DNA of 64,000 nucleotides from Ignavibacteriota bacterium. Lineage in GTDB: Bacteria > Bacteroidota > Ignavibacteria > UBA10030 > CAVZMI01. The translations under genes were made by a program, and so were the position numbers. The notes beneath the pieces are model-generated. The model was given only the letters and a program-made list of their open reading frames with translations, was not told where the DNA came from and made no database searches. Shown piece by piece: positions 3,300 through 27,901 of the stretch (position 1 is its first letter; every line of letters starts with the position of its first letter). The stretch lies in contig CAVZMI010000005.1 in NCBI GenBank assembly GCA_963776275.1, positions 32,001 through 96,000 of the forward strand, in the 5' to 3' direction.

Positions 3300-4856
3300 A
3301 TGGCACGGCAGCAGTTTAAGAACAAGATATATACCGATTGGTCAAAAAAAGAAAATCGGTCCAGGATGGAGAAAGCGATCGCGAAGATCGAATCGGAATT
3401 TAACAGGGAATATCCAATAATCGTAGGGAATGAACAGATCATTCTCGATGCGAAACTAACATCATATAATCCGTCGAATCCCAGCCAGGTCGTGGGGGTT
3501 TTTCAAAAAGGGGGTCGAGAGGAGGCTCTAAAAGCGCTGAATGTCGCATTGAACGCTTTTGAAACATGGCGCTGGGTTGATTACCGCAAACGGGCTGCAT
3601 TCCTCTTCAAAGCCGCAAAGGTAATGCGGCGTCGAAGGTTTGAAATAAATGCGACAATGACTCTCGAAGTTGGCAAGACATGGCCCGAGGCCGAAGCCGA
3701 TACATCGGAAGCAATTGATTTTCTTGAGTTCTATGGCCGCGAGACGCTCCGCTATGGAGCCAAACAACCTGTCGTGCAGCTCAAAGGTGAGCGCGATGAG
3801 CTCCTATATGTTCCGCTCGGGGTGGGGTTGATCGTTCCACCATGGAATTTTCCACTGGCAATTCTGACGGGAATGACGATGGCTGCCGTTGTCACCGGGA
3901 ATACGGTGATTCTGAAACCTTCATCCGATTCGCCTCTGACCGGGTGGCGACTCATGGAAATTCTCGATGAAATCAAATTGCCGGGAGGAGTGGTGAATTT
4001 TATGACAGGCCCGGGGGCAACGGTCGGTGATACGCTCGTGTCACATCCGAAAATCCGCTTCATCTCTTTCACCGGATCAAAAGAAGTCGGCATCCGCATA
4101 AATGAACTTGCAGCAAGAGTACAGCCAGGGCAGATTTGGCTGAAACGAGTCGTGGCCGAAATGGGCGGGAAGGACTCGATGATTATCGACGATCAGGCGG
4201 ATCTTGATGAAGCCGTCGCGGCGACAATTGTTTCTGCATTTGGATTTCAGGGGCAGAAATGTTCGGCTTGTTCGCGTGCAATCGTTGTTGAGAAGATATA
4301 TGATGAATTTATTGAACAACTGAAAAAGCAGGTAGAGACGATTAAAGTAGGCGATGCAAAAGATTTTTCGAATTACATGGGTCCTGTTATCAACAAATCT
4401 GCGAAGGAAAATATACTGAAGTACATTCGCATCGGGGTTGCGGAGGGAGGACGCCTGATTACGGGCGGAGGAGAGGTACCCGGTGATGGATATTTCATTA
4501 AACCGACAGTGATTGCTGATGTCGATCCGAAAGCAACAATAGCGCAGGAGGAAATATTCGGCCCCGTCCTTGCGGTAATTAAAGCAAAAAATTTCGACGA
4601 AGCAATTGTGATTGCCAATAATACTGAATTTGGCCTCACCGGCGGGATTTTTACACGCAATAGAAAGAAGATAGAAAAAGCAAAAGATATCATTCATGTC
4701 GGAAATTTCTATATTAATCGTAAGATCACCGGAGCAATGGTGGGGGCGCACCCGTTCGGCGGATTTAATATGTCAGGAACAGATTCAAAAGCGGGCGGAC
4801 GCGATTATCTGCTTCTTTACCTTCAGGGTAAATCCATTGCGGAAAAAGTGAAATAA
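3300..4856 (+). CDS. pruA: 1-pyrroline-5-carboxylate (L-glutamate gamma-semialdehyde) dehydrogenase
   Basis: PWNFPLAI, FTGSKEVG, AEMGGKD, GFQGQKCSACSR, EEIFGP and SGTDSKAGG motifs. ATG at 3300 follows GGAGA. Confidence 0.93.
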   Translation: MARQQFKNKIYTDWSKKENRSRMEKAIAKIESEFNREYPIIVGNEQIILDAKLTSYNPSNPSQVVGVFQKGGREEALKALNVALNAFETWRWVDYRKRAAFLFKAAKVMRRRRFEINATMTLEVGKTWPEAEADTSEAIDFLEFYGRETLRYGAKQPVVQLKGERDELLYVPLGVGLIVPPWNFPLAILTGMTMAAVVTGNTVILKPSSDSPLTGWRLMEILDEIKLPGGVVNFMTGPGATVGDTLVSHPKIRFISFTGSKEVGIRINELAARVQPGQIWLKRVVAEMGGKDSMIIDDQADLDEAVAATIVSAFGFQGQKCSACSRAIVVEKIYDEFIEQLKKQVETIKVGDAKDFSNYMGPVINKSAKENILKYIRIGVAEGGRLITGGGEVPGDGYFIKPTVIADVDPKATIAQEEIFGPVLAVIKAKNFDEAIVIANNTEFGLTGGIFTRNRKKIEKAKDIIHVGNFYINRKITGAMVGAHPFGGFNMSGTDSKAGGRDYLLLYLQGKSIAEKVK

Positions 4857-25756: not shown

Positions 25757-26785
25757 ATGAATAATTCATTCAAATGCTTTCGATGGTTTGTTGTACCGAT
25801 GCTGATAATTGCTCTTATGGTTGGCGGCTGTAAGAAATCATCATCGACGGGGCCAGATACAGATATTCCTACATACCCGGTGACCGCAAAGGTTCTCGAT
25901 CCGCAGGGATACCCTCTGGGCGGAGCGACACTGACGCTCTTAAATCCACCATTTGAAGATCCAAAATTCACATCGCTGACGGACTCCACGGGAAAAGCCA
26001 CGATTCAATCTCCAGCCGGGCAGCAAACATTGCTTGCAAAATTCGGTACTGTATTTGAGGGAACGCTGAATGTGACTGTTGCAGCCTCTTCGACTCCGAC
26101 AATCGTGACGACACCAATTCAAGTGCATCAGAATACTAGTTTAGGAAAAGTACTTGTCGTTCTGGCAAGCGCCGAACAACTCGAAGATGTGTTGCATGCT
26201 ATCGGTTATACGACATTTGATTCAATAAGCGTCGAAGCGTTGCGCGATTCGGCGGACACAGATTCGACCAAGTTGTTGCAATATCTGAAACAATACAAGC
26301 TTATCTTCTCTGATTGCAACGGCGGCGATGAGTATCAATATCCGCTTCTTGCTCGTACCTATGGTCGCTATGTTACCGACGGAGGAAAAATCTATGGTGG
26401 ACATTATAACTACTACATCTTGCAATATATCTGGCCGCCATACTTCAAACAAAGAGATTACCAGGGTGATGTCTCGACAGATACATTGAAAATCGTCGAT
26501 AATAACCTGCAGAAAGCCGTTGGCACGTACCTCGATTGGACAAAATCGGAGGATTCACGCCATCTTTCAGATTATCAAAAGTTTTCGGATCTACCACCAG
26601 CTCCGATTTCGCATACCTATGGAGTAATCAAAGGGACTAGTCCTGAGGTCGGTGTCATCGTGGAATGCTATCCGAATCCCAACCCTAACGGCGGTAAGTA
26701 TCTCTGGACGGATTACCATAACCAGGACATCCTGAACAATACCAAACTCCTGAAAATCGTAACATACTTCTTGAACGGAATGTAA
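25757..26785 (+). CDS. Lipoprotein of unknown function with N-terminal carboxypeptidase-regulatory-like beta domain
   Basis: AGGAGG RBS; hydrophobic signal with lipobox-like VGG-C then KKSSSTGP; 'V.DPQG.PL.GAT.TL' beta-sandwich pattern. Confidence 0.65.
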   Translation: MNNSFKCFRWFVVPMLIIALMVGGCKKSSSTGPDTDIPTYPVTAKVLDPQGYPLGGATLTLLNPPFEDPKFTSLTDSTGKATIQSPAGQQTLLAKFGTVFEGTLNVTVAASSTPTIVTTPIQVHQNTSLGKVLVVLASAEQLEDVLHAIGYTTFDSISVEALRDSADTDSTKLLQYLKQYKLIFSDCNGGDEYQYPLLARTYGRYVTDGGKIYGGHYNYYILQYIWPPYFKQRDYQGDVSTDTLKIVDNNLQKAVGTYLDWTKSEDSRHLSDYQKFSDLPPAPISHTYGVIKGTSPEVGVIVECYPNPNPNGGKYLWTDYHNQDILNNTKLLKIVTYFLNGM

Positions 26786-26807
26786 AATATTTTATAAATC
26801 CGCTTCT

Positions 26808-26842
26808 AAAAGCCGGCATGTATAATATGTGCCGGCTTTTTT
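26808..26842 (+). terminator. Rho-independent terminator
   Basis: AAAA-GCCGGCA-loop-TGCCGGC-TTTTTT. Confidence 0.85.
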
Positions 26843-26845
26843 ATA

Positions 26846-26874
26846 TTGCCTAGCGTTTCATTTTTTTGTATATT
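26846..26874 (+). promoter_or_regulatory. Putative sigma70 promoter of the tRNA locus
   Basis: TTGCCT-17 bp-TATATT, ending ~20 bp before the outer tRNA-like shell. Confidence 0.6.
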
Positions 26875-26893
26875 AATAAACCTATTATCGATT

Positions 26894-27095
26894 GCTGAAG
26901 TAGCTCAGCGGTAGAGCAGTCCCGACAATTTTCTTATATGCTGGCGTAGCTCAGCGGTAGAGCAGCGGTTTCGTAAACCGCAGGTCGTCGGTTCAAATCC
27001 GACCGCCAGCTCAATGTATGAAGAGAAAATTTTCGGGATAAACCGCAGGTCGTGCCTTCCCGCTAAAGGCGGGAAGGCAAATCCCACCTTCAGCT
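26894..27095 (+). pseudogene. Degenerate tRNA-like shell enclosing the intact tRNA-Thr
   Basis: Acceptor GCTGAAG (26894-26900) pairs with CTTCAGC-T (27088-27095). D-arm TAGCTCAGCGGTAGAGCA is intact. TAAACCGCAGGTCGTG...CAAATCCCAC retains the 3' anticodon strand, variable loop and T-arm remnants. Confidence 0.8.
26940..27011 (+). tRNA. tRNA-Thr (anticodon CGT), CCA not encoded
   Basis: Full cloverleaf: GCTGGCG/CGCCAGC acceptor, GCTC/GAGC D-stem, GCGGT-TTCGTAA-ACCGC anticodon arm, GTCGG-TTCAAAT-CCGAC T-arm, discriminator T. Confidence 0.97.
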
Positions 27096-27643
27096 CAGCG
27101 GTAGAGCAGTCCCGTCCCGACGCAGTCGGGACGGGATAAACCGCAGGTCGTCGGTCCTCCGCCGCGCTTAATGACCGGGTGAGGCGGATCCGCCGTAGGC
27201 GGAAAATCCGACCCTTCGACTCGTCCTCCTTTGTCGGACTCGCTCAGGGTAACACCGCCAGCTCAATGTATGAAGAGAAAATTTTCGGGATAAACCGCAG
27301 GTCGTGCCTTCCCGCTAAAGGCGGGAAGGCAAATCCCACCTTCAGCTCAGTGGTAGAGCAGTCCCGTCCCGACGTAGTCGGGACGGGATAAACCGCAGGT
27401 CGTCGGTTCTCCGCCGCGCTTAATGACCGGGTGAGGCGGATCCGCCGTAGGCGGAAAATCCGACCCTTCGACTCGTCCTCCTTTGTCGGACTCGCTCAGG
27501 GTAACACCGCCAGCTCAATGTATGAAGAGAAAATTTTCGGGATAAACCGCAGGTCGTGTCCGCCACTGGCGGACAAATCCCACCCTTCGACTCGTTCATC
27601 CCGCTATCGCGGGATTCACTCGCTCAGGGTGAAGCCGCCAGCT
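27002..27643 (+). repeat. 252-bp tandem repeat (two full copies plus a divergent partial third) built from tRNA-Thr fragments and palindromes
   Basis: ACCGCCAGCTCAATGTATGAAGAGAAAATTTTCGGGATAAACCGCAGGTCGTG starts at 27002, 27254 and 27506. The two full copies differ at 3 positions by my reading. Confidence 0.95.
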
Positions 27644-27837
27644 AAATAAGAGAGAAGATTGACGATTCACTCACCGTCTTATTCAGTGTCATCCCAATGA
27701 GTACCTGCCTATTCATAATATCTTCTATTATAATTCCAGTATAGATAGAGTAGAAAAATCCAGGCCAGCTTGAATCGCCAGTTAAAGCTTTACGAAAAAT
27801 CTCCAAATGAAAGCCCTTTTCCTGCCTCGAAGAGACC

Positions 27838-27866
27838 TTGAAGTATAAGCGTTTCTTATCTATATT
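27838..27866 (+). promoter_or_regulatory. Putative sigma70 promoter for gdhA
   Basis: TTGAAG-17 bp-TATATT. Confidence 0.55.
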
Positions 27867-27901
27867 TAGATTTACTAACGTCGTTTATGGGAGATTTTCT
27901 T

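Follow-up and report, generated by a model that had tools for sequence, protein, structure and literature searches.

An intact tRNA-Thr gene between the halves of a broken tRNA-Thr gene in Ignavibacteriales: anatomy, relatives and possible origin

Introduction

Bacterial tRNA genes are described as uniform, with group I and group II introns as the sole known disruption of them, in the account given by a 2014 review (PMC4033280). Partial tRNA genes can be left beside integrated genetic elements, as outlined by van der Gulik et al. 2023 (PMC9897764), and the tRNA gene region of phage T4 harbours SegB, a free-standing GIY-YIG homing endonuclease, as PMC2330249 presents it. With regard to small palindromic DNA, it was put forward as a speculation in one part of Bertels and Rainey 2011 (PMC3116915) that repetitive extragenic palindromic (REP) doublets forming hairpins (REPINs) could take in DNA that is useful to the host. 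Here we describe a locus at which an intact tRNA-Thr gene, bounded by inverted repeats, lies between the two halves of a second, broken tRNA-Thr gene. The locus came to notice in a first-pass annotation of a 64,000-nucleotide stretch from an Ignavibacteriota bacterium (GenBank assembly GCA_963776275.1, contig CAVZMI010000005.1, positions 32,001 to 96,000 of the forward strand); we call this whole stretch the window. Very small palindromic mobile DNA has reportedly been described by Elhai et al. in 2008, in the form of small dispersed repeats of cyanobacteria.

Comparison with these systems reveals both likenesses and differences. As with the fragments outlined in PMC9897764, broken copies lie beside an intact tRNA gene, tRNA genes are hot spots for foreign DNA, and one relative (G549) has an integrase island in this very tRNA gene; unlike those fragments, the nested locus contains no island or integrase, its 5′ and 3′ fragments enclose a live gene, 8 bp have been lost, and inverted repeats bound inserts of 113-230 bp. 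Like the REP sequences and REPINs portrayed in PMC3116915, it has a pair of inverted repeats forming a long hairpin around a short spacer, and its genome has dispersed hairpins with the same ends (38 of them), nested hairpins and Y1 transposase genes. It differs from that portrayal in that the spacer holds a whole tRNA, the seat is a cognate tRNA gene, the copy number is low, the Y1 genes are without this palindrome, and what suggests mobility is solely the occurrence of filled and empty sites. The split, intron-containing and permuted tRNA genes of archaea and red algae, as summarized in PMC4033280, likewise have halves with complementary extensions that can pair in a tRNA-like manner. However, no decoding tRNA could arise from the halves found here, as they lack positions 28-35; the halves decay neutrally, and no splicing endonuclease gene was found in the genome. 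Group I introns in bacterial tRNA anticodon loops, in the same summary, share the insertion in the anticodon region, whereas the junctions here are at positions 27/36 rather than 37/38, removal of the insert restores no tRNA, and Rfam gives no intron match. Finally, in likeness to what PMC2330249 presents for SegB, small GIY-YIG genes lie elsewhere in this genome between an intact tRNA and a displaced fragment, in one case inside a tRNA-Pro(GGG) shell together with a live tRNA; in contrast, the tRNA-Thr loci examined have no GIY-YIG gene, and the nuclease function of these genes is putative. The first-pass annotation had known of no described system with this layout, and we found none in the literature searched, which consisted largely of open-access main texts.

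Anatomy of the nested locus

Coordinates are window positions on the + strand, and parts of tRNAs are given in standard tRNA position numbering. The source genome is designated G000, relative genomes have numbers from G0xx to G5xx, loci or contigs are labelled Lxxx, and g32 is one genus. We refer to a tRNA-Thr(CGU) with the acceptor strands GCTGAAG/CTTCAGC as A-type, and to one with GCTGGCG/CGCCAGC as B-type.

Two halves of an A-type gene, here called the shell, enclose a complete B-type gene. The shell begins with a 26-nt 5′ half, GCTGAAG-TA-GCTCAGCGGTAGAGC-AG (26894-26919), which comprises the A-type acceptor strand, TA, the D arm, A26 and G27, and which matches the 5′ part of the intact A-type tRNA of the relative G001 at 26/26 positions. 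It is followed by the 15-nt left inverted repeat TCCCGACAATTTTCT (26920-26934), a 5-nt spacer (26935-26939), the intact B-type tRNA-Thr(CGT) with its acceptor GCTGGCG/CGCCAGC (26940-27011), a 12-nt spacer (27012-27023) and the right inverted repeat AGAAAATTTTCGGGA, again of 15 nt (27024-27038). The two arms are complementary at 14/15 positions, with a single C/T mismatch, and the insert has in this respect the terminal inverted repeats of a REPIN or of a miniature inverted-repeat transposable element (MITE). Arms homologous to the left one, with TCCCGAY as their start, are present in 15 nests of relatives. The shell then resumes with a 57-nt 3′ half (27039-27095) that represents A-type positions 36-73 and includes the acceptor strand CTTCAGC; the junction at which CGGGA of the right repeat meets TAAACCGC is kept in relatives. 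A 23-nt hairpin (27055-27077) stands in place of the GGTT of the shell's T stem and loop, and without this hairpin the 3′ half is identical to the A-type tRNA of G001. The acceptor strands of the two halves, CTTCAGC and GCTGAAG, pair in 7/7 positions. Upstream of the shell is a promoter-like site, TTGCCT-17-TATATT (26846-26874), which was detected by a consensus scan and has the same sequence upstream of the intact tRNA in G001.

The inner gene is recognized by ARAGORN (26940-27012) and by Rfam, whose model RF00005 gives 74 bits at 26940-27011, against a gathering score of 29. It forms a canonical cloverleaf with acceptor, D, anticodon and T arms and a 7-nt anticodon loop, and in a whole-genome ARAGORN run it is the sole tRNA-Thr(CGT) of its genome. 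The cassette between the shell halves measures 119 bp (26920-27038), of which 72 are tRNA, and it replaces 8 nt at tRNA positions 28-35: the shell breaks off after G27 and restarts at U36. With these nucleotides the shell has lost the anticodon stem's 5′ strand and the first four bases of the loop, two anticodon bases among them. The shell thus has neither anticodon stem nor anticodon and does not qualify as a canonical tRNA, and neither ARAGORN nor Rfam calls it, even at E-values up to 10. At that threshold Rfam returned 17 matches in 26700-27900, of which the inner tRNA alone is credible, the other 16 being far below their gathering scores. The cassette carries no promoter of its own, and 5 nt are all that separates the left repeat from the tRNA.

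The 202-nt stretch from 26894 to 27095 is predicted to fold at -92.6 kcal/mol (z = -8.1), a stability equalled by 0/200 shuffled sequences, into an outer acceptor stem, an inverted-repeat stem and the inner cloverleaf. All elements listed in the first-pass annotation are present where it had placed them, including the intact tRNA between inverted repeats, and its expectation that both the shell halves and the inner repeats pair agrees with the two stems of this fold. Its description of a shell with an acceptor and a T stem of its own is right for the acceptor, but the T arm is not intact, as the 23-nt hairpin takes the place of part of its stem and loop.

The same site in close relatives

The same chromosomal site exists in relatives in filled, empty and decaying forms. 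The first-pass annotation had anticipated that a relative might have a single GCTGAAG-type tRNA-Thr between gpsA and gdhA, and G001, which belongs to the same genus as the source genome, indeed has one intact A-type tRNA-Thr(CGT) at this site, with an upstream flank identical to that of G000 at 130/140 positions. In G001, the intact tRNA is followed by a hairpin copy whose 3′ half is B-type, together with the same spacer and right repeat as in G000, and in a global alignment G001 is collinear with a subset of G000.

A second comparison covers the same site in 16 genomes of genus g32. A plain A-type tRNA is present in G563, G115 and G566. G205 has a pristine nest, in which the shell parts match the plain gene of G563 exactly and the flanks are 97-98% identical to those of G563. 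The nests of G469 and G549 have decayed shells. In G282, which has lost the 3′ shell, the 5′ half and left repeat still precede the inner tRNA, and in G564 they precede an A-type tRNA. B-type genes, with or without fragments, are found in G567, G505 and G568. Truncated 5′ halves are present in L003, L040 and L080. Presence and absence are thus polymorphic at orthologous sites, as is seen with REPINs and MITEs, in two pairs of genomes: G000 and G001, and G205 and G563.

We counted changes in G469, G549 and G282 by comparing each with G205 as the reference. The inner tRNA has 0 changes in 216 nt. The shell halves have 15 changes in 154 (9.7%), plus T-loop insertions of 34 and 41 nt, and the flanks have 39 changes in 504 (7.7%). 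In G549, uncompensated changes disrupt two neighbouring base pairs of the repeat stem, and pairing between the acceptor strands is lost. Since the shell accumulates substitutions at the rate of the flanks while the inner tRNA is unchanged, the shell evolves as non-functional DNA. On these sequence comparisons, the shell is in all probability a pseudogene that yields no working RNA. The suggestion that the transcript might be a nested precursor with two RNase P substrates is therefore not borne out: the outer partner has no anticodon, its T arm is broken, it changes as its flanks do, and it is lost or half-lost in relatives.

In G549, the decayed nest has itself received an insertion (L146:1760-2977, L131). 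An insert of ~5.7 kb splits the inner tRNA of the nest after TAAACC, with its junction at position 41, and starts with a Phage_integrase (tyrosine integrase) gene (E = 1.4e-35). A classical island has here been added to the nest.

Recurrence in Ignavibacteriales

To follow the arrangement beyond close relatives we used the 18-mer CGGGATAAACCGCAGGTC, which combines the end of the right repeat with tRNA positions 36-48. The exact 18-mer occurs in 13/201 evenly sampled genomes of the order, in 9/96 genera and in 5/9 families, while a reversed control pattern has 0 matches in the 201 genomes. Seven of the 13 positive genomes have nests (G000, G012, G017, G034, G526, G486 and G205). The same pattern gave 31 stretches in genome contigs, ~13 of which are Ignavibacteriales tRNA-Thr loci and the others chance matches in unrelated taxa, and 30 stretches in metagenome contigs, of which 14 are real. 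Viral contigs gave 0 matches to the junction pattern, with no sign of a phage attachment site. When sampled genomes, metagenome contigs and two further g32 genomes are taken together, 15 distinct nests are known.

These nests share a common plan. The inner tRNA has the orientation of the shell in 15/15, the repeat stems span 10-19 positions, and the inserts measure 113-230 bp. The 5′ junction reads CAG/TCCCG (GAG/TCCCG in G012, with base changes in G549), and the 3′ junction reads CGGGA/TAAACC (CAGGA in G549). Within the arms, TCCCG and CGGGA alone are constant; the remainder varies by lineage, with complementarity kept. A B-type inner gene inside an A-type shell is found in the nests of four families, and shells with 7/7 acceptor pairs are found in several (G000, G526, G205 and L064). 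As shells decay neutrally, the existence of undecayed ones in several families argues that nests form, or are transferred, repeatedly and recently.

Other states were also observed at tRNA-Thr loci. In some, at least one 3′ half lies behind an intact tRNA, and every such half has the right repeat in front of it; in others, copies have a short TCCCG...CGGGA hairpin in place of positions 28-35, or form fused chains. In L033 (~4300-4600, uncultured bacterium), the inner tRNA is a tRNA-Thr(TGT), and the shell around it stems from a CGT-type gene whose acceptor is GCCGGTG/CGCCGGC.

Origin of the nested arrangement

We lean, if only slightly, towards an origin at the DNA level, in which a REPIN- or MITE-like cassette with a replacement tRNA split the resident gene, and recombination among the repeats followed. 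The resident A-type tRNA-Thr(CGU) would have been split and its positions 28-35 exchanged for the 119-bp cassette with the complete B-type tRNA-Thr(CGU); an empty allele at this locus would join GAGCAG directly to CGGTTTCG. The inner tRNA would be transcribed from the resident promoter (26846-26874), which presumably drives the whole array, and would be freed by ordinary 5′ and 3′ tRNA processing, with the shell halves as dead leader and trailer. The cassette could act as a REPIN- or MITE-like hairpin element in which a tRNA gene closed by its acceptor stem counts as one hairpin-forming unit, in Russian-doll fashion. Afterwards, homologous or microhomology recombination among D-arm, TAAACCGCAGGTC and AGCTCA segments may have generated tandem 3′ halves, copies with short hairpins, half-deleted shells and a healed plain gene. 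Judging from shared segments, the various states probably interconvert through direct repeats, namely the D arm (19-20 nt), TAAACCGCAGGTCGT (15 nt) and the AGCTCA microhomology between tRNA 3′ end and D arm. The first-pass annotation had likewise suggested a replacement of the resident gene's anticodon arm by a palindromic element with an intact tRNA. The comparative data fit such a replacement, although they do not describe a simple one-off event, and the direction of change could be either insertion or later healing.

Several further points weigh against insertion of a cassette. At the site 8 bp are missing without any target duplication, a combination that, to our knowledge, no transposition chemistry predicts. 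The palindromes flanking the Y1 transposase genes of G000 are not of the TCCCGAC type, and no transposase, integrase or GIY-YIG gene was found in or near the tRNA-Thr loci examined. The complementarity of the arms across lineages would also be expected from selection on an RNA stem. Among the six close g32 genomes, five are nested or nest-derived, so that healing of a nest, and not the absence of any insertion, may account for the plain gene of G563. Since G001 keeps B-type 3′ pieces downstream of its intact gene, B-type sequence was at the locus before G000 and G001 separated. Furthermore, the cassette spacer of G205 starts with CAGAAAGACA, which resembles the resident trailer CAGAAGACAG, a likeness that hints at a possible local origin by duplication.

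That local origin, without any mobile cassette, is the alternative that survives best, and we regard it as unlikely though by no means negligible. The resident gene would have been copied in tandem, a short TCCCG...CGGGA palindrome would have arisen in the anticodon position of the spare copies, and deletions starting from the fragile centres of these palindromes would have left one intact copy between the 5′ and 3′ parts of spares; the shell would still be a pseudogene. Besides the G205 spacer, this is favoured by the frequency of tandem arrays of broken copies (the 252-nt repeat at this locus, five 86-nt units at tRNA-Gly(GCC), L057 and L063), by the existence of short-hairpin copies with the same junctions, and by the remaining states, which recombination between direct repeats could convert into one another. 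However, it requires two deletions with exact ends, independently for tRNA-Thr(CGT), tRNA-Thr(TGT) and tRNA-Leu(TAA). The B-type inner genes within A-type shells in four families are not expected of copies of one gene, and the undecayed shells in several families imply repeated recent events.

It is less probable still, and in our judgement quite improbable, that the shell is a working RNA, in the sense that its pieces stay paired as a two-piece tRNA-like molecule (a decoy, a processing clamp or a regulator) or that the repeat stem aids processing of the inner tRNA. Two-piece cofolds of the shells in L023, L033, L047 and L064 are predicted to give a class-II-like cloverleaf with a 7-bp acceptor, a D arm, a long stem starting from G-UCCCG, a 3-bp variable hairpin and a T arm, but a neat cofold of clean shells follows from the way in which they are constructed. 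Apart from these four, the shells (11/15) have no canonical tRNA body as a result of T-arm insertion, D-arm deletion, a missing acceptor strand or substitutions; the shell of G000 folds into no cloverleaf, with its T arm broken, and is called by neither Rfam nor ARAGORN. Selection on RNA could be read from arms that differ by lineage and yet are complementary over 10-19 positions, from hairpins in broken copies that occupy loops and not stems, and from the segment 27078-27157 (80 nt), which is 79/80 identical between G000 and G001 as against 130/140 for the upstream flank. On the other hand, shells change at the flank rate and the inner tRNA has no changes; G549 has breaks in both its stem and its acceptor pairing, G282 has lost half of the shell, and G563 and G001 have no shell.

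The nests could also be scars of integrase-driven islands that had entered the anticodon arm of tRNA-Thr and were later deleted, which we consider very unlikely. tRNA-Thr(CGT) is a real island target, as the ~5.7-kb Phage_integrase insert of G549 demonstrates. Site-specific recombination retains the overlap sequence at both junctions, whereas 8 bp are lost here and the junctions have no common direct repeat. Furthermore, 0/15 nests hold a cargo gene, there is no integrase on the window's contig (C5), the junction pattern was not found in viral contigs, and the island junction of G549 is at position 41 rather than at 27/36. Fragments of tRNA genes beside integrated elements are, in the outline given by PMC9897764, a known source of partial tRNA genes. 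As for misassembly, which the first-pass annotation had named as a possible source of error, a repeat-rich tRNA locus in a metagenome-assembled genome of 38 contigs with 5.3% contamination and 99%-identical 252-nt repeats invites suspicion, as does one contig from another run that ends exactly at 26919, but an artefact is unlikely, and the least credible explanation of all, given the same nested order in 15 distinct sequences of unrelated assemblies, including the 1-contig genome G469, and given contigs of two other metagenome runs that extend from the 5′ half through the left repeat into the inner tRNA (26892-26989 and 26893-26967).

Four other candidates were rejected. An inverton was rejected on the uniform orientation of the inner tRNA in the 15 assembled nests. 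A split tRNA, or one with a bulge-helix-bulge intron, does not fit halves that when joined are without 8 nt, part of the anticodon among them; moreover, the splicing endonuclease family PF01974 has no match in G000 (96% complete) and was found in 4 archaeal control genomes. A group I intron is excluded because Rfam reports no intron family in 26700-27900 at E-values up to 10 and because the junctions are at 27/36, not 37/38. A homing-endonuclease cassette was dismissed for tRNA-Thr, as no GIY-YIG gene was found at the tRNA-Thr loci examined; at other tRNA genes of G000 such genes are present.

Returning to the cassette, a bolder version of the proposal, which we hold to be possible but doubtful, is that the insert is an active, undescribed miniature mobile element. 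It would be a hairpin with a tRNA as cargo that lodges in the anticodon arm of its cognate gene, kills that gene and takes over its role, and is moved in trans by a hairpin-specific enzyme (Y1/HUH or GIY-YIG), and the same machinery would build the Russian-doll hairpins in dead tRNAs, the apparent 5S copy described below and the repeat families of Ignavibacteriales. Damage by mobile DNA and partial copies beside tRNA genes belong to a known kind; there is a real chance that the element represents a new class of miniature element.

The locus matters in several respects. Here is an order of bacteria with tRNA genes split by small cassettes that bring a replacement tRNA, with the intermediate states kept in close relatives. 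The locus offers a dated series of the decay, recombination and occasional resurrection of dead RNA genes. If the cassette is mobile, it would be a minimal addictive element, whose sole cargo is the gene that it destroys and whose loss would cost the host its tRNA, and a case of natural gene replacement at an essential RNA gene. In the output of annotation pipelines, such a locus will show up as a single tRNA next to intergenic DNA without explanation, or else as spurious pseudo-tRNAs.

Candidate enzymes

Two kinds of enzyme are candidates for moving such a cassette, Y1/HUH transposases and small GIY-YIG nucleases, neither of which is linked to the locus. A profile search found 9 Y1_Tnp (IS200/RAYT-type) matches in G000. 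In terms of REPIN-type copies, the genome has 3 tRNA-carrying nests and 38 short hairpins with the same ends, and the 9 Y1_Tnp genes are flanked by different palindromes.

At 6/10 loci of G000, a small GIY-YIG open reading frame (ORF; Pfam E = 1e-12 to 1e-15) is no more than 1 kb away from a tRNA gene. In 20 relatives (L099-L128), GIY-YIG ORFs are within 1.5 kb of a tRNA gene at 13/27 small loci (Pro, Ser, Asp, Leu and Arg), a count from which three matches of UvrC size were excluded. Small GIY-YIG genes are thus multi-copy and lie beside tRNA genes far above chance. The usual order is intact tRNA, GIY-YIG ORF and displaced 3′ fragment. A tblastn search with two GIY-YIG proteins of 98 loci, including the tRNA-Thr loci then collected, found no GIY-YIG gene at the latter. 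The genome-wide association of tRNA genes with small GIY-YIG genes and nested hairpins is a lead to an unknown DNA-handling activity.

A tRNA-Pro(GGG) nest with a nuclease gene as additional cargo was observed on the - strand of contig C21 (75250-75800). It consists of a degenerate tRNA-Pro 5′ part, a GIY-YIG ORF with one in-frame TAG, the intact tRNA and a 3′ fragment with a T-loop module.

The downstream array

The locus is flanked by gpsA, a CarboxypepD_reg-like ORF and gdhA, and its array of broken tRNA-Thr copies extends past 27095 to ~27643. A repeat search found a 252-nt tandem repeat on the + strand at 27002-27253 and 27254-27505 (99% identity), with a partial unit of 53 nt at 27506-27558; these are 2.2 copies as assembled from short reads, so that the copy number is uncertain. 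The unit consists of spacer, right repeat, A-type 3′ half and hairpin copy. The next dead copy (27093-27253) has its D arm fused to the shell end at AGCTCA, and a 27-nt hairpin, TCCCGTCCCGAC-GCA-GTCGGGACGGGA (27110-27136), in place of the same positions 28-35. In its B-type 3′ half, the T loop holds a two-hairpin module of 46 nt (27158-27203), and a ~40-nt CCCTTCGAC...GCTCAGGG module (27212-27249) precedes the acceptor strand. The degenerate array end (27559-27643) closes with CGCCAGCT and aligns with the array end of G001. Between the array end and the gdhA promoter no terminator-like site was found on the + strand, and the array pieces occur at no other locus of the genome.

Nesting and hairpins elsewhere in the genome

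Two further tRNA genes of G000 are similarly nested, between repeats of the TCCCGAC type. A tRNA-Thr(TGT) on the - strand of contig C23 (438250-438400) lies between the arms TCCCGACAACC and GGTTGTTGGGA; its shell has the 5′ piece GCTGGCTTAGCTCAG and a 3′ piece starting from U36 with a T-arm hairpin, and G001 has the same extended match. A tRNA-Leu(TAA) on contig C18 (99155-99489) is nested in a broken tRNA-Leu copy between the arms GTCCCGACAGACG (13 bp) and CGTCTGTCGGGAC, and this copy has a different variable-arm hairpin and a T-loop insert. Flanking by inverted repeats is no general trait of the tRNA genes: among the 46, those that stand out are tRNA-Leu(TAA), the two tRNA-Thr nests and two AT-rich cases. 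As few tRNAs are flanked in this manner, the repeat stem is not a general processing feature.

Partial copies adjoin 17/46 tRNA genes (44 partial matches and the Ser(GCT) case), and dead copies of Gly(GCC), Gly(TCC), Lys(CTT), Ser(GGA), Arg(TCT), Pro and Met tRNAs hold hairpins in the D, anticodon and T loops. Upstream of tRNA-Gly(GCC), five 86-nt tandem units (C18:93425-93854) each comprise an acceptor strand, a D arm and a hairpin, TCCCGATGAAATCGGGA, in place of positions 27-34. On contig C10 (40586-42065), a tRNA-Met is followed by four 349-nt units in which the end of a small GIY-YIG ORF runs into a tRNA-Met copy with a TCCGCCGAAGGCGGA hairpin in its D loop. The ~46-nt two-hairpin module (..TTATG..CGGTGAGGCKGA TCCGCC-N-GGCGGA) was seen at 27158-27203 of the window, at C21:~75334 and at C37:~20740, and homologous modules follow T-loop C56 in dead copies of Thr, Pro(GGG) and Ser(GGA) tRNAs.

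Genome-wide, hairpins of the form TCCCGAY-N2-8-RTCGGGA number 38 and those of the form TCCGCC-N3-5-GGCGGA number 28, while four control palindromes have 0-1 occurrences. That the genome is massively filled with REP sequences was rejected, with 1476 hairpins with a stem of at least 7 bp compared to 766 in shuffles. For the dispersed repeat CCCTTCGAC...GCTCAGGG we counted 80 left ends, of which 35 have a right end no further than 75 nt away. In 13 copies the centre is AA; other copies have nested hairpins there, 20-64 nt in length and often of the TCCCGA type; examples are at C4:18621-18900 and at 27212-27249 and 27583-27630 of the window. Hairpin-forming DNA within the loops of other hairpin-forming DNA is thus the rule in G000, and the nested tRNA is one instance of it. 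At C27:~77700-78050, on the - strand, is what appears to be a second 5S rRNA 3′ end (~77858), interrupted by a CCCTTCGAC...GCTCAGGG module with a nested hairpin.

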